Notes: generated from the letters alone by a model not told the origin. A stretch of DNA of 64,000 nt from a virus (IMGVR_UViG_3300045988_112440), one strand, 5' to 3'. Counted from the stretch's first letter, positions 1-52,470 are shown. Made by a program: numbers and translations.

Positions 1-512
1 GCTGCTAAATTCTCTCTAAACTCATCCATTTGATCACGAGCAATACTTTCTAATGGTGTACCAACTATTTCAGCCCAGAAGGTATCATCGCCATGTAAAT
101 CTTCTGGATATTGATAAAAATTTTTGTTAGTCATTCCACATGCTCGTAATATTGCAGCTGGTGTCCAAAAGAACTCCATCCAACTACTGCCGTCACATTC
201 TTTAAGTAAGTGGTAAGCAATCTGGTTCTGCAAACGCAAAGAGAATTTCCCTTTATTTCTTGTCGGCAGAGGAGGAAGCACCTCATTGTCTGGACGAATC
301 TTTACAATAATAAAGCGCTTTCCTTCCTTTTTAAATTCAACAAAACGATTCAAATCTTCAAGGAAATGTTTTTTACTATTCCCACCCAACGGTTTTCCGT
401 TTTTATTAAGGATGTTGAGATAAGTAGATAGCTCCAAGAAGTTTGAGAACTTTTGTCCATCACTTAATTTGTTTACCATATCCTGCGTAACATTATAATT
501 ATTTTGCTCCAT
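1..512 (-). CDS. hypothetical protein, N-terminal ~170 codons (ORF runs past window start)
   Basis: Not in ORF track (no in-window stop). Reverse-strand ATG at 512-510 lies 4 nt after GGAGG (complement of 517-521). Frame is open to position 1 (MEQNNYNVTQDMVNKLSDGQKF...). Confidence 0.6.
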   Translation of the reverse strand, partial: MEQNNYNVTQDMVNKLSDGQKFSNFLELSTYLNILNKNGKPLGGNSKKHFLEDLNRFVEFKKEGKRFIIVKIRPDNEVLPPLPTRNKGKFSLRLQNQIAYHLLKECDGSSWMEFFWTPAAILRACGMTNKNFYQYPEDLHGDDTFWAEIVGTPLESIARDQMDEFRENLA

Positions 513-619
513 ATTGCCTCCAGTTCTAATTTAGTTGTACTGACGAGTCTGTATTATATATATGTATGAAGATACATAGTCGTCAGTACAAGTACAACTA
601 TCACAAAATATCTAATAAT

Positions 620-677
620 GGTTTACTCGACTTGAAGCTATGACGCGTAAGCGGCATAGATTCAATTTGAGTAAACC
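620..677. other. 58-nt nested hairpin (9+5+5+3 bp) capped by GTAA
   Basis: GGTTTACTC/GAGTAAACC, TTGAA/TTCAA, CTATG/CATAG and CGC-GTAA-GCG read directly. More hairpins follow to about 740. Confidence 0.5.
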
Positions 678-772
678 TACGAGCGTCCGCAGACGCGAGA
701 TCCCTCTCCACCGTCGTAACGGTCCCTGTCCGGGAGGACTACTATAAACATCCTCTTGCTATCTTCTTTACA

Positions 773-794
773 GTATCCTGTATTGTATAGCTAT
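773..794 (+). promoter_or_regulatory. ACAGGATAC-core motif, forward-type copy (GTATCCTGTATTGTATAGCTAT)
   Basis: Inverted partner at 831-852, centres 58 bp apart. Read on the minus strand it points toward the minus-strand gene. Confidence 0.6.
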
Positions 795-830
795 CTACAC
801 TCATTATACCATGAGATTGCCAAAAGTTCA

Positions 831-852
831 ATAGCTACATAATACAGGATGC
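831..852 (+). promoter_or_regulatory. ACAGGATAC-core motif, reverse-type copy (ATAGCTACATAATACAGGATGC variant)
   Basis: Reverse complement matches 773-794 at about 19 of 22 positions. Confidence 0.55.
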
Positions 853-1608
853 GAGTATTTCTAGTGCCTATTATAATAAGGTATATTTTGGAGAGTATTG
901 TTCTCTATAAATGACATTTAGATACTTTGTGTGTTCTGTGTAAGCTGCCAGAGGCTACAATTATGCTTATTAAATGTGTCTGGAGTCTCTAAGGGTGCTG
1001 CTCAGATGCCAGATCAGTCTATTTATGGCGATAGGGGAGTATGGATGAGCATAAATAGGTACTTTATACTCCGAAGAATGGTCATTTTCGGTACATTTTG
1101 GGTACACATCGGGAAAACCTGCATGAATCCTAGCTTTTTCGGATTTTATTGAGCTAAAAAGGAACAAAATAAGTGGTAAAAAGATACAAATAAAAAGAAA
1201 AACTAGCCAAAATATAACGAAAATACGTTAAATTCTAGCTAGTTACCGAATGAGCTACCGATTGAAAAATAGCGATTTTAAGCCATTTTTATGTATTTTG
1301 AGTGGAAAAATGAGTGATTTGTGAGTATGTGCAGGAGAGGGTATAGGGGTGTATTTTAGGATGATTTTGTCAGGGAAATGTACCCGGGTAGGAACAGGTT
1401 AAATAGTTAGATTGAGTTGATAGGATAGATAGAGGTTGTTGTGATTGAAAGAGAATGGTATTTTTGTGGAAATTGTTGTGCAGAATGTATAGAGAGCAAG
1501 AGAAGATGAAATTCATAATTGGTAATTATGAACAAGAAAGATGTACTGGGATCTCAGCCTGCTGCCTGGAATGTCTCAAAAATGAAAAGTATCCCCCATG
1601 GGGAAAAG

Positions 1609-1640
1609 CCGCTTTTGTGCAAAAAGCGGTATTTGCTTTA
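1609..1640 (+). terminator. hairpin plus T-rich tail (terminator-like)
   Basis: CCGCTTTT-gtgca-AAAAGCGG followed by TATTTGCTTTA. A second hairpin AAAGTGCC/GGCACTTT sits at 1648-1669. Confidence 0.4.
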
Positions 1641-1765
1641 ATTGAATAAAGTGCCTGTTTTGGCACTTTCCAGGCCGGGAATTATTCCTACTTTTCCGGT
1701 ATGTTTATAGCATTGATTTTTGCCAGGAATTGAATTTGCAAATTAGTTGCATTTTCGTCGTGTTC

Positions 1766-1826
1766 GATATCAAAATGATATCAAATGTTGCGTGTGCAAC
1801 ATTTTGTAAAGTATTTTTACTTTACA
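1766..1826. repeat. three abutting perfect hairpins
   Basis: GATATCA-aaa-TGATATC (1766-1782), AAATGTTGC-gtgt-GCAACATTT (1783-1804), TGTAAAGTA-tttt-TACTTTACA (1805-1826). Confidence 0.8.
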
Positions 1827-1870
1827 TCAATTATGCTATTCTCTATATCTTGTATTCAATTCACAAAAAA

Positions 1871-1963
1871 CCACAATATCTAGTATCTATCTATATTGTT
1901 CAATATCGCACTATCCACAATATCTAGTATTCAACCATTCGTTCAAACCACAATATATAGTAT
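1871..1963 (+). repeat. three 16-bp direct repeats (iteron-like)
   Basis: CCACAATATCTAGTAT at 1871 and 1915, CCACAATATATAGTAT at 1948. Spacings are 44 and 33 bp, multiples of 11. Confidence 0.8.
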
Positions 1964-2200
1964 TGCCGGGTACTGTTGTACCTATTAGAGTTTTGCCTGC
2001 CTAGGCGCACGCACGCGCGTGAACACGTTTCCGCGTGTTTCTTAAAATTCTTTAACTATTCGATCACAGCCTTGCCAAAATATAATTTTTAACGATATAT
2101 CGCTATTTTATAAAATCCTGGAATTCTTGCGTGTTTTGTCCATGCGTTTGCAACAAAAGTATATGTTCAACCATGGTAGAACGTGGTAAAGTATAGCCAC

Positions 2201-2299
2201 CGGAAGGCCGGAAGGCTTGAAGGGACGCACGGTCGGAAGGTGCGGAAAAGTTCCCCGATAAATCGTTTAAAAGCAAGCGGTCGTTCCCCGAACGGAAGG
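2201..2299 (+). repeat. CGGAAGG x4 in a purine-rich tract
   Basis: Exact CGGAAGG at 2201, 2209, 2234 and 2293. CGGAA-type variants continue to about 2530. Confidence 0.7.
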
Positions 2300-2975
2300 A
2301 GATGCAAAAGCAAATAGTACGGAACGGCGCTCATGCAAAATACCACGCCTAACAGGCGGGAGAGAGGATAGAACGGTTTTAGACGTGCACACAAAATAGC
2401 CCTTCAATCAATCGAACGGCTAAACAAATGGCACGGCGGGCAAGGCGGTCGGAATCCGTACTTGTTCAAATGGTTCACCTTGCAAAACAGGCCGGAACCG
2501 ATTCCAGATTGACAAAATGCGCTGGAAGGATAAAAACAATATAACCGTTTTGAAAGAATCCAAAACGCAAGTTTTGGCAACGTTTCAAACGCAAGCTATC
2601 AGTTTGTTACTTTTAGGCGGTACAATGCAATCTTGTATGATTGAGAAAACAGAATATTTTTGCAAAGATATGCAATTAGACGGCGCTGGACCTCAAAAGT
2701 TTGGCGCTTTTTGTTTGGACTTCAAAAGTTTGGACTTGTCGCAGATAATAGCAAAAATAGACAGTTTTCCGTGACAATTGAATAATAGCAAGCATGGTTG
2801 AAGGGCTGTTTTTGGCAGACAGAGGGTAAACCATGCTTTACAGTATACATATTTGCCCATCGTGGGCGAACCATAGGCTACAGGCAGAACCTGGAATTTT
2901 GTCTGTAGCACTTGGCTTGCTCATAATAGCAAGAAGTCCATACACACATTATAACACATAAAGGAGAAAAATACT

Positions 2976-3785
2976 ATGTCTACTACTACCATTCTGTCCG
3001 CTATCAACTTCAACGCTACCGCAGCCGCAGAGAAGAACCGCACCACCGGTGCAGCCGTTGCCCTTTTCAAGAAGGGCGGCAAGGAAGTCAACACCTCTGA
3101 GAAGGCCCTGGGCAGAGACTGCCTGAAGGGTATCACAGCAGAGCAGTACGAGACCTATTGCAAGGCCGTCCGTGCTGTCTATCTGGATGCTGATTTGCTG
3201 GCACGCTATGCCGCAGACGCGGACTCTGTTCAGAAGATTAAGACCTTCTACTTCAACGATCTGGCAAACCTTACCACCGCTATCATGGGCGATACCTTCA
3301 AAGTCAATGATGTCTTTGCAACCTTCACTGTTGAGCAGTTCATTGAGCAGAGCGTGGGCAAGGTGCGTGCATTCACCGCTACCACAGCAGGCCACGGCTA
3401 CGACACGGAAGCAGAATCTCAGACTAAGTTTGTCAAGTGGGTCGAAGCATGGTTTAGCGCCAACGCAAGCGGTGTTGCTATGCTCTCTATGGCAGAGCGT
3501 GACCGCCGTGCAAGTGTCCGCAAGCTGTCCTCTAAGGTTGTGCGCCTTACTAAGAGTGTCGAGAATGCAGAAGAAGTACTGTCCAGTGCTAAGAAGGAGC
3601 TGGACTCTCTCAAGAACAAGAAGGACACCAACGCAAAAACTCTGGAAAAGAAGATGAAGGCTGTTCAGGGCATGGAAAAGGATCTGGCAGACGTTAAGAA
3701 GAGCCTGGAATCTGCTCAGACTAAACTGGCAGACCTTCAGAGCAAGGACTTCACCAACGACTTCAGCGCAGAAGAAACCCTGTAA
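2976..3785 (+). CDS. abundant-looking protein with coiled-coil K/E-rich C-terminus, function unknown
   Basis: ORF track. SD AAAGGAG about 8 nt upstream. Strong CTG/AAG/AAC/ACC/TTC codon bias, unlike its neighbours. Confidence 0.85.
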   Translation: MSTTTILSAINFNATAAAEKNRTTGAAVALFKKGGKEVNTSEKALGRDCLKGITAEQYETYCKAVRAVYLDADLLARYAADADSVQKIKTFYFNDLANLTTAIMGDTFKVNDVFATFTVEQFIEQSVGKVRAFTATTAGHGYDTEAESQTKFVKWVEAWFSANASGVAMLSMAERDRRASVRKLSSKVVRLTKSVENAEEVLSSAKKELDSLKNKKDTNAKTLEKKMKAVQGMEKDLADVKKSLESAQTKLADLQSKDFTNDFSAEETL

Positions 3786-3830
3786 TTAAACCACGCAACC
3801 ATCGTGAACACGCAAGAGCTCTACATAAAT

Positions 3831-3875
3831 GCTAGGCGATTAGTGGTACTAGGGAAGACGTAACCACTACCAACA
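3831..3875 (+). repeat. conserved hairpin element, copy 1
   Basis: GCTAGGCGATTAGTGGTACTAGGGAAGACGTAACCACTACCAACA. About 37 of 45 positions identical to 9097-9140, with a compensatory stem change. Confidence 0.6.
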
Positions 3876-3916
3876 CGGCAGTAATGCCGTCACTATCAAT
3901 CGAAAGAAGGGATACT

Positions 3917-4495
3917 ATGCAAAAGTTTCTGTGTAAGAACCATGCAGACCGTCAGATTAAGTTTGACGGTCATTCTGTGCCGTCTGGTGCATACTATGGT
4001 CAAACCGCAGAGGGATTGCGTTTTATCGCAATCGTCAGAGTGAATCAGATCGGTATGGTTTGGCGTTCTGGTAAAGGTTTGGTTCCGTGGGAGAAGTCTT
4101 ATAATCAGACTGTCGTTGACTTCATTAGAAGTGAACCTATCGGCGTAAATCCTGAGACTGTGCATTTTGATATGGCAGTGAAATCAGAACGCAAGAAGGC
4201 TGGACGTTATGCAGCACGTTTTGCTGGCACTGGGTCTGCTAGTGCAAATCGCAAGAGCAAGAAGGCAGCGAAACACACTAAGGCTTTCCGTACTCGCAAT
4301 GACTCCTTTACAGAAGAGTACAATAATGCCTCTAGCCTGATTTATGGGAAGACTGTCGAGATGAACGGACGACCTCAAAAGGTCTATGGTAAGATTGCAG
4401 AGTACATGGACGGCAGCGGGGTTGGAAAAATCCGTGGTGATATGCGTCCTCTTGAGCCTGTTTTTCCTGTACCTTCTGGCAGAAAGGCAAGGTGA
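3917..4495 (+). CDS. hypothetical basic protein
   Basis: ORF track 3884-4495, trimmed to ATG 3917 (SD GAAGGGA upstream). ATG 3884 has no SD. Confidence 0.6.
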   Translation: MQKFLCKNHADRQIKFDGHSVPSGAYYGQTAEGLRFIAIVRVNQIGMVWRSGKGLVPWEKSYNQTVVDFIRSEPIGVNPETVHFDMAVKSERKKAGRYAARFAGTGSASANRKSKKAAKHTKAFRTRNDSFTEEYNNASSLIYGKTVEMNGRPQKVYGKIAEYMDGSGVGKIRGDMRPLEPVFPVPSGRKAR

Positions 4496-4498
4496 ATC

Positions 4499-4801
4499 AT
4501 GTCAGCAACTGTTTTGAGTGGTCAGAACTTGCGCAAGAGTGAAAAATTTGCTATAATTGCATCAAAAGGTGGTGCGACTATGGCAAGTAAGTACGACAAC
4601 ATGAGCAAAGAAGAGCTTGTTGCCGCTATGAAAGCGCGAAATAAATCTTATAAGTGGCAAAAGGCTTGTGTTCTTACTCCGGCAGAGGGTGAAAAGTTGG
4701 AAACTGAAATTCTTCCTCTTTATGGATGTATAAACGTGTCTCAGCTTGTTAAAAAAATTGTCAATGGTGAATTGATTGTTTCCTCGTCAGAATCCAACTA
4801 A
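4499..4801 (+). CDS. hypothetical protein
   Basis: ORF track. ATG follows AAGGTGA. Same frame as the upstream ORF across a single TGA. Confidence 0.6.
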   Translation: MSATVLSGQNLRKSEKFAIIASKGGATMASKYDNMSKEELVAAMKARNKSYKWQKACVLTPAEGEKLETEILPLYGCINVSQLVKKIVNGELIVSSSESN

Positions 4802-29699: not shown

Positions 29700-29736
29700 T
29701 TGACTTCTGTGATTGTATCCTGTATAATGTAGCTAT
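29700..29736 (+). promoter_or_regulatory. consensus sigma-70 promoter carrying a forward-type motif copy
   Basis: TTGACT (29700-29705), 17 bp spacer, TATAAT (29723-29728). Motif GTATCCTGTATAATGTAGCTAT at 29715-29736. Confidence 0.7.
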
Positions 29737-31205: not shown

Positions 31206-31225
31206 AACTATATAACACAGGATAC
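31206..31225 (+). promoter_or_regulatory. ACAGGATAC-core motif, reverse-type copy
   Basis: AACTATATAACACAGGATAC. Ends 21 nt before ATG 31247. Confidence 0.6.
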
Positions 31226-33575: not shown

Positions 33576-33660
33576 GGGGATATGGTGAAATTGGCAGCCA
33601 CGCTTGATTCAAACTCAAGTGTCGAAAGACGTATCGGTTCAAATCCGATTATCCCTACCA
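33576..33660 (+). tRNA. tRNA-Leu(CAA): tRNA-Leu (anticodon CAA), type II, CCA encoded
   Basis: Hand-folded. Acceptor GGGGATA/TATCCCT. Anticodon stem CTTGA/TCAAG with loop TTCAAAC. Long variable arm. T arm ATCGG-TTCAAAT-CCGAT. Confidence 0.85.
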
Positions 33661-33857
33661 TGAAGATCAGTTGTTCTGGCTAGATCGGGGATTGGCCGTT
33701 CATTGGCAAACGACAGGTATCATACCGGTAAAGGATGCCGAGCCAAATAGGAAGGGGAATAAGGTGCAAGCCGAGTAGCTGTCGGACGAATACCCTTCAG
33801 GTAGCCAGTAAACCGGAATGTAAAACAAATGTTGGCTGTTTCTGATCTTCTATATAA
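33661..33857 (+). ncRNA. 197-nt structured spacer (unclassified candidate ncRNA)
   Basis: Nested helices: 33662-33670/33842-33850 (9 bp), 33676-33682/33802-33808 (7 bp), and two internal arms. Confidence 0.35.
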
Positions 33858-33940
33858 GCTACCGTGGTGGAATGGCAGACACCGGAGACTTAAAATCTCC
33901 TGTCGGAAACGACGTGCCCGTTCAAGTCGGGTCGGTAGCA
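33858..33940 (+). tRNA. tRNA-Leu(UAA): tRNA-Leu (anticodon UAA), type II
   Basis: Acceptor GCTACCG/CGGTAGC. Anticodon stem GGAGA/TCTCC with loop CTTAAAA. Long variable arm. No CCA encoded. Confidence 0.85.
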
Positions 33941-33947
33941 TTGATAT

Positions 33948-34023
33948 CCGGGTGTAGCTCAGTTGGAAGAGCGCGTGCTTTGGGAGCATGAGGCCGCAGG
34001 ATCGTGACCTGTCACTCGGACCA
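33948..34023 (+). tRNA. tRNA-Pro(UGG): tRNA-Pro (anticodon UGG)
   Basis: Acceptor CCGGGTG/CACTCGG (C1-G72). D arm GCTC..GAGC. Anticodon loop TTTGGGA. CCA encoded. Confidence 0.85.
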
Positions 34024-34056
34024 ACCCGAAAGGGCATGTAGAATTTTTCATTCACA

Positions 34057-34110
34057 TTATTCCCAGCTCTCTGGAAACGGAGCAGTGTGACGTAGTAAGC
34101 TGGGCATATG
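34057..34110 (+). ncRNA. covarying spacer element, copy a
   Basis: ATTATT CCCAGCT [CTCTG-GAAA-CGGAG] CAGTGTGACGTAGTA AGCTGGG. Confidence 0.5.
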
Positions 34111-34112
34111 CT

Positions 34113-34183
34113 GCGCCATCGCCAAGCGGTAAGGCAGAGGACTTTGACTCCTCCATCACAGGTTCGACCCCTGTTGGCGCAAT
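34113..34183 (+). tRNA. tRNA-Gln(UUG): tRNA-Gln (anticodon UUG)
   Basis: Acceptor TGCGCCA/TGGCGCA (U1-A72). Anticodon stem GAGGA/TCCTC with loop CTTTGAC. T arm ACAGG-TTCGACC-CCTGT. Confidence 0.8.
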
Positions 34184-34187
34184 TTAT

Positions 34188-34269
34188 GCGGATATGGTGG
34201 AATGGCAGACACGCCAGACTTAGGATCTGGTGCTTCGGCGTGTGGGTTCGATGCCCACTATCCGCACCA
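34188..34269 (+). tRNA. tRNA-Leu(UAG): tRNA-Leu (anticodon UAG), type II, CCA encoded
   Basis: Acceptor GCGGATA/TATCCGC. Anticodon stem CCAGA/TCTGG with loop CTTAGGA. Variable arm TGCTTCGGCGT. Confidence 0.85.
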
Positions 34270-34319
34270 CGATCATAGAATGGTTGCGTACCGTTTGTTG
34301 ATCTCCTTTGACTGCCACT

Positions 34320-34375
34320 ATTATTCCCAGCTCACCAGTGATGGTGCAGTAGTGCTTTGTAAGCTGGGTGATTAT
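34320..34375 (+). ncRNA. covarying spacer element, copy b
   Basis: ATTATT CCCAGCT [CACCA-GTGA-TGGTG] CAGTAGTGCTTTGTA AGCTGGG. Confidence 0.5.
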
Positions 34376-34450
34376 GCAGCGGTCGTACAATGGTTAGTAT
34401 ATCAGCCTTCCAAGCTGAGGATGAGGTTTCGACTACCTTTCGCTGCTCCA
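34376..34450 (+). tRNA. tRNA-Gly(UCC): tRNA-Gly (anticodon UCC)
   Basis: Acceptor GCAGCGG/TCGCTGC. Anticodon stem TCAGC/GCTGA with loop CTTCCAA. Discriminator U. CCA encoded. Confidence 0.85.
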
Positions 34451-34545
34451 ATCTCGTATGGGTAGGATTTTTAGCGGTCAAATCCGGCTGCGCCTGTGCG
34501 AGATACCACCCCGAAAGGGGAGAGATATAGGAAATGTGCATCACT

Positions 34546-34600
34546 GTTATTCCTTCCTCGTCTATATGATATAGATGCAATAGTGTTTATAAGGAAGGTT
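34546..34600 (+). ncRNA. covarying spacer element, copy c
   Basis: GTTATT CCTTCCT cg[TCTATA-TGA-TATAGA] TGCAATAGTGTTTATA AGGAAGG. A further hairpin TCCCAGT/ACTGGGA follows at 34600-34633. Confidence 0.45.
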
Positions 34601-34637
34601 CCCAGTTGAATAGTTGCAGCTGTTTGACTGGGAATAT

Positions 34638-34714
34638 GGGATAGTAGCTCAGTTGGTCAGAGCTGGCGGCTCATAACCGCTTGGTCGCGAGTTCAAATCT
34701 TGCCTGTCCCACCA
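34638..34714 (+). tRNA. tRNA-Met(CAU): tRNA with CAU anticodon (elongator Met or Ile2), CCA encoded
   Basis: Acceptor GGGATAG/CTGTCCC (G1-C72, so not initiator-like). Anticodon loop CTCATAA. T arm GCGAG-TTCAAAT-CTTGC. Confidence 0.8.
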
Positions 34715-34808: not shown

Positions 34809-34829
34809 TAGCTATGTAACACAGGATAC
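34809..34829 (+). promoter_or_regulatory. ACAGGATAC-core motif, reverse-type copy
   Basis: TAGCTATGTAACACAGGATAC. Ends 17 nt before GTG 34847. Confidence 0.6.
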
Positions 34830-52310: not shown

Positions 52311-52343
52311 CAATCATATTGGTGTCCTGTATAATGTAGCTAT
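52307..52343 (+). promoter_or_regulatory. consensus sigma-70 promoter carrying a forward-type motif copy
   Basis: TTGACA (52307-52312, overlaps the helicase stop), 17 bp spacer, TATAAT (52330-52335). Motif GTGTCCTGTATAATGTAGCTAT at 52322-52343. Confidence 0.7.
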
Positions 52344-52381: not shown

Positions 52382-52401
52382 AACTATATAATACAGGATA
52401 C
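52382..52401 (+). promoter_or_regulatory. ACAGGATAC-core motif, reverse-type copy
   Basis: AACTATATAATACAGGATAC. Centre is 58 bp from the 52322-52343 copy. Confidence 0.6.
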
Positions 52402-52450: not shown

Positions 52451-52470
52451 AACTATATAATACAGGATAC
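52451..52470 (+). promoter_or_regulatory. ACAGGATAC-core motif, reverse-type copy
   Basis: Same 20-mer as 52382-52401, 69 bp downstream. Ends 13 nt before ATG 52484. Confidence 0.6.

Follow-up and report, generated by a model that had tools for sequence, protein, structure and literature searches.

The viral stretch IMGVR_UViG_3300045988_112440 (64,000 nt, analyzed as a whole and hereafter called the window) has a single strand switch, at which a minus-strand gene starting at 512 and the first plus-strand gene, starting at 2976, diverge. The interval between them (513–2975, hereafter the gap) raises the question of whether it is one regulatory element, a remnant of decayed genes or something else. 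The analysis showed that the gap is real, conserved and functional, and that it is a composite of at least four separate modules, neither one element nor decayed genes. It is non-coding and conserved family-wide, and it contains a promoter module with flanking 18-mers, arms of skewed composition, and an RNA locus with covarying structure in two alleles. It probably serves a ~135-kb gut Firmicutes phage of the SPbeta/PMBT24-like type as a non-coding control centre, built as a mosaic of these modules. Set against what is known, the locus would be a central packaging-site (pac) spacer of the SPbeta/PMBT24 type enlarged by a switch module and a candidate hypervariable RNA family.

The gap is non-coding and conserved across a family of gut phages

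The first-pass annotation of this DNA had found no gene with a Shine-Dalgarno (SD) sequence in the gap, and we confirmed this: the longest open reading frame (ORF) is 85 aa (2517–2774) and lacks an SD, and no credible gene was detected in 513–2975. Its statement that gaps elsewhere measure 0–215 bp overlooked a 1.4-kb cluster of seven tRNA genes at 33.5–34.7 kb. The alternative that the gap is decayed or unrecognized coding sequence, whether SD-less small proteins, genes in an alternative code or pseudogenes, was examined from several sides. TAG recoding occurs in a related group of gut phages (PMC10607447), but in the window stop-codon recoding opened nothing convincing: reassigning TAG, TGA or TAA yielded no frame longer than 184 codons, and that one ran antisense to the purine tract described below; no suppressor tRNA was present among the seven tRNA genes. 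Gene callers place ORFs of 60–152 aa in the gap of some relatives, and one of the RNA allele groups described below has an apparent small hydrophobic ORF just before the first gene. However, gap ORFs across the 54 close relatives were inconsistent in strand, position and length, gave low-complexity junk translations and lacked an SD; the 152-aa call corresponded to a pyrimidine-rich antisense strand, in which stop codons are naturally scarce.

A 37-codon ORF at 1528–1641 (MNKKDVLG...), whose N-terminal 24 codons are kept family-wide, looked promising in three sequences and was rejected across 59 variants. It was frameshifted after codon 24, varied from 9 to 87 aa, stopped by codon 14 in five variants and had no SD, so the conserved entity is the nucleotide sequence. 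Single-nucleotide indels were scattered through the alignment of the right-hand RNA (2199–2710), and in several relatives conservation of the gap exceeded that of the gene beside it, contrary to what decay would produce. When relatives were aligned, as the first-pass annotation had proposed for telling covariation from decayed ORFs, RNA covariation was found in 2199–2710 and no ORF was consistent. A coding explanation is therefore very improbable; the ORFs that gene callers place in the gap are spurious, and recognizing its non-coding status improves annotation.

Relatives were retrieved through the first plus-strand gene, and further members through a core motif pattern. All 54 close relatives kept a gap of 2.3–2.9 kb, in 49 distinct versions; relatives with a first gene only 54–58% identical still had a gap of 2.6–3.0 kb, and ~60 distinct members found by the core motif had one of 1.8–3.0 kb at the same divergent junction. 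In relatives L106, L113, L114 and L116, the left half of the gap was 78–89% identical, compared with 68–71% for the first gene. The gap was also mosaic, with blocks 596–726 and ~1600–2225 swapped for unrelated sequence in many relatives, and the early genes downstream were mosaic in the same manner.

These phages are common in human-gut metagenomes. The 19-nt core pattern TCGGRAAAAMCYGCATGAA matched 110 stretches, once each (IMG/VR contigs mostly of 70–150 kb), and occurred in many ENA and Logan assemblies. A scan of a bacterial genome collection with this pattern returned 75 matches, the level expected by chance, with no real core homology and no host or prophage copy, and no GenBank phage matched the DNA at 400–3100. 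The ~135-kb phages have no cultured member.

A predicted structured RNA with many unrelated alleles

The proposal that the gap might make a long non-coding RNA was directly supported by a predicted plus-strand structured RNA with compensatory pair changes, its own promoter and its own terminator, here named RNA-2. Its promoter (2148–2198) has an extended −10 element, with TG at 2184–2185, one base, and TAAAGT at 2187–2192, and a predicted start at ~2199. Three different upstream variants keep TG-n-TA(A/G)AGT followed by ATAG(G/C)CAC, and two of them also have TTGCAA or TTGACG at 17-nt spacing. The RNA itself (2199–2710, plus strand) is purine-rich and ~510 nt long; the repeat noted earlier in its purine tract was found (CCGGAAGG, 2200–2216), and a 5′ hairpin, GGCC-GGAA-GGCU, lies at 2206–2217. 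It ends at an intrinsic terminator (2682–2718), a 10-bp stem (2682–2708) followed by a U-run, which is the only part common to most RNA alleles.

Alignment of 28 distinct sequences gave an RNAalifold consensus of −119 kcal/mol with 134 pairs. Compensatory double changes occurred at 21 of the 134 pairs, compared with 12.6 ± 1.7 after shuffling, and none of 500 shuffles reached 21; 99.1% of cells were paired, and double-change cells numbered 111 versus 32. Three consecutive covarying pairs fell in a helix spanning ~110 nt. When the 3′ partners were slid by 1–3 columns, only 0–4 pairs showed double changes. Many pairs were G-U or alternated between G-C and G-U, which indicates that the plus strand is the RNA strand and argues against a DNA cruciform. 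Single-sequence folding agreed, with z = −2.66 for the plus strand (0/100 shuffles as good) and −1.30 for the minus strand, and the one-nucleotide indels in the alignment rule out coding. Two points weigh on the other side: the structure was predicted from the same alignment in which the pairs were counted, and because the sequences are close relatives (85–96% identical), some of the signal comes from shared ancestry.

A second RNA allele, represented by 17 sequences, also showed plus-strand structure. Double changes were present at 14 of its 110 pairs versus 6.9 ± 1.7 in shuffles, 0/500 of which reached 14, and slid controls gave 0–4. Across the family, the locus held at least eight mutually unrelated sequence clusters that share at most the last ~130 nt. 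All allele representatives examined had a consensus sigmaA promoter and most had a GNRA-type-capped 5′ hairpin, followed by 0.45–0.9 kb of purine-rich sequence. Phages whose first genes were 97–100% identical carried at least four different RNA alleles. These results, obtained from sequence alone, agree with the general features of a structured non-coding RNA (covariation, strand specificity, promoter and terminator), and covariation supports 2199–2710 as a stable ~510-nt structured RNA and a candidate new family. Promoter, 5′ hairpin and terminator would delimit this RNA, which would exist as at least eight interchangeable alleles of unrelated sequence.

The Rfam check for a known RNA family in the gap came back empty. 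In Rfam 15, window positions 1–4000 gave zero matches at E ≤ 1, including to GOLLD, ROOL, OLE, raiA, group I and II introns, 6S and tmRNA; four relatives gave two sub-threshold chance matches only, and in the whole window only tRNAs reached the gathering score. Like GOLLD, ROOL and phi29 pRNA, RNA-2 is a large, highly structured phage-encoded non-coding RNA, and with pRNA it shares great sequence variation between relatives and a location beside the DNA end at which packaging is predicted to begin. Unlike them, it has no Rfam match even at E ≤ 1, is not next to tRNA genes and is ~3 times the length of pRNA, and its alleles share no detectable common structure beyond the 5′ hairpin and 3′ terminator. 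Phi29 also has protein-primed DNA, in contrast to the pac/headful packaging that we infer for the window phage.

One alternative is that 2199–2710 acts in cis on the first early gene, as a long leader or an attenuator, or that it is a pre-primer like ColE1 RNA II. It lies directly upstream of that gene on the same strand, and allele type correlated with first-gene length (A, 285–288 aa; C, 278 aa; window type, 269 aa). Its ~0.5-kb length, many stem-loops and allelic variation also recall RNA II and its incompatibility groups, which are well established. However, RNA-2 ends at a strong intrinsic terminator with a U-run, whereas an RNA II-type primer would continue into the origin and form a persistent hybrid. 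Beyond that terminator, the first gene is served by promoter-like sites of its own, and at least four RNA alleles stand beside first genes that are 97–100% identical. No overlapping antisense promoter was seen, although no specific search for one was made. A leader or pre-primer is accordingly unlikely.

Returning to a separate RNA, the exchange of alleles at one fixed position suggests that the locus determines specificity. Our best guess from the sequences is that RNA-2 would be a type-specific trans-acting RNA, e.g., in immunity or as an anti-defence decoy. The swapping of alleles between near-identical neighbouring genes points to a type-specific interaction, for which superinfection immunity, a decoy or a pRNA-like packaging cofactor are candidates. 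If this is true, many unrelated alleles at one locus would suggest diversifying selection on an RNA-mediated interaction, which is rare and tractable.

Two minor features were seen at this locus in relatives. In the L003/L014/L052 and L005/L047 types, the decamer GGTCTAGTCC flanks the −35 element twice, ~60–20 nt upstream of the RNA start, and its complement GGACTAGACC occurs in the first 30 nt of the RNA; this arrangement may be autoregulatory or an operator. Relatives with RNA allele A, such as L128, have an apparent short hydrophobic ORF (...MLVSFCGLAYMGYAVVLTVYGGCSLLATALVEDILK) between the RNA and the first gene, in L128 from ~250 to ~60 nt before that gene, and the window has none.

A predicted packaging site between C-less and G-less arms

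In IMG/VR contigs of 127–138 kb, the distance from the gap to one contig end was 64–68 kb, as calculated from match ranges, and the genes on either side pointed away from it. In relatives, a ~929-aa protein with the PF05183 ('RdRP') domain heads the leftward arm ~6 kb left of the gap, and its sequence identifies it as a YonO-type single-subunit DNA-dependent RNA polymerase. The nearest cultured homologues were in Clostridium phage c-st and Enterocloster phages (PMBT24 and the CB457/CB473 series); homologues in SPbeta-like phages were more distant, with YonO ~26% identical. This layout matched that of SPbeta, in which a polymerase-headed late arm and an early/replication arm diverge from a central spacer.

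Pac sites have been mapped in phages of both kinds. In SPbeta-like phages, the opening point, which is the packaging start, was placed by restriction analysis and PhageTerm in the yonR-yonP spacer beside yonO, within a conserved ~250-bp fragment (bioRxiv 10.1101/2021.11.22.469490). The SPbeta pac site between yonR and yonP is credited to Fink & Zahler 1982, as cited by Kohm et al. (bioRxiv 10.1101/2021.11.22.469490). The PMBT24 record starts at its PhageTerm pac site (PMC11035940). In the Goe14 spacer, we found a ~200-nt C-less tract, the 250-bp fragment and a ~200-nt G-less tract, with the opening point at one junction; in SPbeta/Goe14, the motif AAATATACCCCCAT precedes the opening point by 209 nt, within this divergent spacer beside yonO. 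The flipped strand of PMBT24 reads a ~400-nt C-less tract, AAAGTACCCCCCAT, ~250 nt, the terminus and a G-less tract with 0–1% G, all inside a ~3.9-kb gene-poor region. AAAGTACCCCCCAT is the sole match to the motif pattern at that pac locus.

The window showed the same order: a C-less arm (1248–1557), AAAGTATCCCCC at 1586, ~210 nt with hairpins and three palindromes, and a G-less arm (1793–1967). The C-less arm (plus strand) has at most 7% C over 310 nt and a GC skew of ~+0.8; the C-depleted tract reported earlier at 1291–1500 was confirmed, with 8 C in 210 nt, and RNAalifold predicted the arm to be unstructured (energy ~0). In every family member the core described below is followed by a C-less tract of 200–300 nt whose composition is kept and whose sequence is not (L048, L106, L117 and L119). 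A second conserved block (1528–1600, plus strand), the one that reads as the pseudo-ORF MNKKDVLG, ends in AAAGTATCCCCC (1586–1597), which has its sole exact copy in the 64 kb here. The motif lay 12–45 nt past the C-less tract in L048, L106, L119, L128 and L136 and likewise in PMBT24; a G-less arm began ~200 nt after it in L048 and L106. A AAAGTAYCCCCC-type motif 3′ of the C-less arm and ~200–260 nt before the terminus thus has its counterpart in the window at 1586–1597, and C-less and G-less arms surround a centre of ~250–300 bp in the window, Goe14 and PMBT24 alike.

The segment between motif and right arm contains two hairpins (1608–1669, plus strand). Of the terminator-like hairpins claimed previously, the first of these (1608–1630) was supported as an intrinsic-terminator-like structure by inverted-repeat and terminator scans, whereas that at 1126–1150 was weak and was not called by the terminator scan. 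Three abutting perfect palindromes follow, as had been noted, at 1766–1782, 1783–1804 and 1805–1826, in a stretch (1766–1848) that includes the predicted pac zone. The G-less arm (plus strand) has at most 7% G over 175 nt and carries the phased iterons CACAATATCTAGTAT at 1872, 1916 and 1949, which were likewise verified; they are spaced by 44 and 33 bp, and with up to three mismatches 9 matches were found versus 2.6 expected. Relatives with a different 1600–2200 sequence carry iterons of their own. The asymmetry of the arms was extreme within the window: when GC skew was computed in 6386 sliding 150-nt windows, the 12 highest values all came from 1281–1401 and the nine most negative ones from 1771–1851, and nowhere in the 64 kb did the C fraction or the G fraction drop lower than inside the gap. 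Each strand running 5′ to 3′ toward the predicted cut is G-rich and C-less. RNA transcribed outward over either arm would be C-rich and G-poor, like Rho-loading sites, and in PMBT24 the G-rich strands of the arms have G-quadruplex potential.

To the left of the arms lies a family-conserved DNA core (1053–1299), which still aligned in the most distant relatives, L117 and L119; together with the short 1528–1600 block, it was the only part of the gap to do so. In the core, TCGG/CCGA motifs with 11-bp phasing (1083–1106; TACCGA at 1244 and 1255) flank a ~100-bp A-tract-rich stretch (1140–1240). RNA covariation over 853–1700 was not above slid controls on either strand, which indicates that this region acts as DNA or as unstructured sequence.

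The order shared with the mapped pac sites of PMBT24 and SPbeta-like phages predicts a pac cut near 1795–1848, a position obtained by applying from 1586 the motif-to-terminus distances of SPbeta (209 nt) and PMBT24 (262 nt). In this scheme, the region ~1053–1967, comprising a bent A-tract core with phased CCGA repeats, the C-less arm, AAAGTATCCCCC, the palindromes and the G-less iteron arm, would be the pac site. Binding of the small terminase to the arms with their repeats would be followed by a first cut near 1795–1848, from which headful packaging would proceed leftward into the polymerase/late arm, as it does in SPbeta. We hold pac function with this cut position to be about evenly balanced between true and false. 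The packaging role named by the first-pass annotation thus gained a layout order like that of mapped pac sites, by comparison rather than by experiment.

Several points weigh against the pac assignment. It is an argument from shared layout, and the only shared sequence is one motif of 12–14 nt; alignable homology to the mapped pac fragment was not found, with blastn-short returning 9–13-nt words only and MAFFT giving 52% mean column identity with PMBT24 and Goe14, as unrelated DNA would. In L117 and L119, the relatives furthest removed from the window, the G-less arm was weak, and the core at 1053–1299 is not part of the segment corresponding to the mapped pac fragments. Iterons, A-tracts and palindromes also suit a replication origin equally well.

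Comparison with the individual systems showed both likeness and difference. PMBT24 (proposed Kielvirus) is likewise a gut Firmicutes phage with a YonO-type RNA polymerase, a PolIII-alpha polymerase and a multi-kb gene-poor region, one strand of which reads a C-less tract, AAAGTAYCCCCC(C)AT, ~250 nt and a G-less tract. Its PhageTerm terminus stands at the junction with the G-less tract, measured there and only predicted in the window phage. In contrast to the window, it has no alignable sequence beyond the motif, its arms are far more extreme (0–1% G, 44–50% C), its gene-poor region lies 9.6 kb away from the divergent junction of the RNA polymerase, and it has no counterpart of the purine-rich RNA-2. 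The SPbeta pac shares the central divergent spacer between a YonO-headed late arm and an early/replication arm, a ~250-bp conserved fragment rich in inverted repeats, flanking C-less/G-less arms and a TAYACCCCCAT-type motif ~209 nt from the opening point. However, its spacer is ~1 kb rather than 2.5 kb, its motif is degenerate, and it has no structured RNA, 18-mer switch or CCGA core. In SPP1, a phage with headful packaging, the small terminase recognizes a pac (pacL-pacC-pacR) whose bent repeat arms lie on either side of a central cleavage segment; the window resembles it in layout only, as two repeat-bearing bent arms flanking a cleavage segment. To our knowledge, strand-asymmetric C-less/G-less arms have not been described as a feature of SPP1 pac.

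We tentatively advance two novelties as one joint claim, which we think has somewhat less than an even chance of holding. Long strand-asymmetric C-less/G-less arms would be a conserved, previously unremarked pac signature across phages with a YonO-type RNA polymerase, and strongly promoted, covarying phage RNAs of 0.45–0.9 kb with at least eight unrelated alleles beside the packaging site would be a new class. If true, this provides a testable pac prediction and a signature for locating pac sites in uncultured relatives, which helps to set genome starts.

Contig ends were considered as possible termini and rejected: they were scattered in the gap and looked like assembly breaks, and in sample 7000000441 two contigs ended at ~1897 and ~1922 on opposite sides, as calculated from match ranges. 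The palindrome at 1783–1804 (AAATGTTGC-GTGT-GCAACATTT) has its loop reverse-complemented (ACAC) in L048 at 4655–4676, as from hairpin- or cruciform-mediated inversion, and this points to the element behaving as a DNA palindrome. In PMBT24 (OQ326496.2, 1–2180 and 98190–99962), annotated 'hypothetical proteins' of 31–68 aa fill the ~3.9-kb pac region; since tracts there have 0–1% G or C, most likely these are spurious calls.

A possible replication origin in the same region

The first-pass annotation also named a replication origin as a candidate role. Region 1053–1967 might be an origin in which an initiator binds the CCGA repeats or iterons and the A-rich tract or the palindromes melt. The gap lies at the only strand switch, where the cumulative GC skew has its minimum, and near the middle of the ~135-kb contigs, with both arms reading outward at 64–68 kb from an end by the same arithmetic. 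Iterons at multiples of 11 bp, phased A-tracts, an 11-bp repeat and three palindromes are the kind of elements that such a reading calls for, and each variant of 1600–2200 has its own iterons, like origin/initiator specificity modules. In a variant of this reading, transcription through the C-less tract, with its G-rich non-template strand, would form an R-loop that primes bidirectional replication. R-loop priming is known from the ColE1 and T4 origins, and a GC skew of +0.8 over 300 nt is a composition that favours R-loops.

However, DnaA boxes were not enriched, with a single 8/9 match inside the gap and a window total of 25 versus 21 expected, and no initiator gene was recognized among the neighbours of the gap or within the replication module. 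Which allele the neighbouring minus-strand gene carried did not track iteron type. The skew minimum called for by the proposed GC-skew check was indeed found at the strand switch of the gap, but transcription direction switches at the same place; since all genes point away from the gap, GC skew has no power to separate replication from transcription here. The same layout surrounds the mapped pac termini of two relatives, and the two roles are not mutually exclusive. We regard an origin in this region, the R-loop variant included, as less likely than not; it would be compatible with a pac site.

A DnaA-box-like word, CTATCCACA (one mismatch to the consensus), lies at 1911–1919, inside an iteron of the G-less arm. 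This word is present as CACTATCCACA in the G-less arms of both the window and PMBT24, and CTATCCA in that of Goe14; the sharing may reflect chance in G-free sequence or a shared binding site.

A probable promoter/operator switch faces the leftward gene

The left part of the gap contains a promoter/operator module (771–853) in which two inverted 18-mers flank a minus-strand sigmaA promoter. The 18-mer CTAYATAATACAGGATAC occurs at 773–790 on the minus strand and at 835–852 on the plus strand, and the near-consensus promoter between the copies consists of TTGAAC (831–826), 17 nt and TGgTATAAT (−10 at 808–803). This promoter aims at the leftward gene through a ~284-nt leader. The module was nearly invariant in 41 distinct relatives. 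The first-pass annotation had described a motif pair and nested hairpins at 620–740, and the inverted repeats at 620–677 and the pair at 775–794/831–850 were present, as was a further repeat at 532–594. The pair is not isolated, however: it belongs to a genome-wide, promoter-linked 18-mer family that had been missed, with 10 copies in the window versus 0.03 expected.

Besides the two in the gap, copies lie at 7640–7657, 7703–7720, 29715–29732, 31208–31225, 34812–34829, 52322–52339, 52384–52401 and 52453–52470. Near 7.6, 29.7 and 52.3 kb, copies in minus orientation overlap the −10 element of plus-strand promoters of the form TTGACA-17-TATAAT. Copies in plus orientation lie 10–25 nt upstream of the ribosome-binding sites of genes at ~7742, 31247, 34857 and 52484, and the genes with an 18-mer in this position encode an RNA ligase, a methyltransferase, a DNA ligase and one protein of unknown function. 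The 18-mer is most likely the binding site (operator) of a phage regulator. It could also be a promoter for the phage polymerase, or an RNase III-type processing stem where copies pair ~60 nt apart. The published YonO start site in SPbeta lies upstream of yonK, outside the yonR-yonP spacer, and no consensus is known (PMC5467207). With an operator as the preferred assignment, a strong host-type promoter would drive the leftward gene and a phage regulator would bind the flanking 18-mers.

SPbeta has repeated operator elements of the SPBRE/MrpR type. Like them, the 18-mer is a short sequence repeated at early promoters genome-wide, which suggests a single master regulator; unlike them, it has an unrelated sequence, and half of its copies are near ribosome-binding sites, not over the −10 element.

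Two hairpins lie in the leader of the leftward gene. An inverted repeat with 23-nt arms that are 87% complementary (532–594, minus strand) stands just upstream of the SD of the gene starting at 512 and is probably a 5′ untranslated-region hairpin or an operator; L048 keeps it by paired changes from GTTG/CAAC to TTCG/CGAA, as read by eye. Over 513–860, 10 pairs had double changes versus 0–3 in slid controls. A hairpin with 27-nt arms (620–677) lies in the swappable cassette (~596–726), for which homology breaks at 595 and 727 in many relatives, and L048 and L117 have unrelated long hairpins in its place. The allele of the minus-strand gene (379 to 506 aa) was not correlated with iteron or cassette type.

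Tandem promoters and a conserved hairpin precede the first early gene

The leader of the first plus-strand gene (2721–2975, plus strand) contains three promoter-like sites, at 2721–2749, 2758–2786 and 2899–2927, each with a −10 element followed by AGCAA. The repeated word reported earlier, ATAATAGCAAG, was found at 2782 and 2923, with a third copy at 2745 that has one mismatch, and the word TTATAGCAAG persists in the most distant relative, L117. A hairpin at 2779–2849 was extremely conserved, with 2783–2851 98.5% identical in L048/L051 compared with ~84% for the adjacent gene. The tandem promoters and conserved hairpin at 2721–2927 would serve the first early gene.

Genome context and additional features

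The genes flanking the gap had no informative domain in Pfam, PHROGs or PDB sequence searches. Genes of the right arm included RNA ligase/kinase, methyltransferase, DnaB-type helicase, primase, RecJ, DNA ligase and NrdD, as well as exonuclease V/Dda-type helicase genes and a PolIII-alpha polymerase that shares 47% identity with its counterpart in Clostridium innocuum phage Amboise. In the left arm of relatives, the YonO-like PF05183 gene was located at 1–504 in L110, 1–1317 in L113, 1–1594 in L116 and 1–1502 in L119, and it is preceded by genes for Ant-type anti-repressors.

In relatives, genes for a ToxN-family toxin (PF13958) and an AcrIC5-like protein occur in the early region (L110/L111 8966–9448, minus strand; L117 9586–9789). 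The 4.1–6 kb region of the window is swapped between relatives in a similar manner, and judged by its sequence the small-gene region right of the gap looks like a mosaic anti-defence island. Also in the early region, three tandem paralogous small genes of ~75–85 codons, each starting with ATGTGGGATTTAAT and having similar ribosome-binding sites, represent a local triplication, with repeats at 13094–13146, 13318–13370 and 13557–13609 and at 13300–13325, 13539–13564 and 13768–13793.

The 45-nt spacer between the first and second plus-strand genes (3829–3873) recurs at 87–89% identity ~5–7 kb downstream in relatives (L106 13007–13051, L110 13305–13349, L113 12891–12938 and L116 14123–14166) and is a repeated intergenic element, possibly a promoter or terminator module. 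The tRNA cluster (33576–34714) comprises seven genes, three for Leu and one each for Pro, Gln, Gly and Met, and two 49-nt repeats with the dyad symmetry CCCAGC...GCTGGG occupy spacers between the tRNAs (34056–34104 and 34320–34368).

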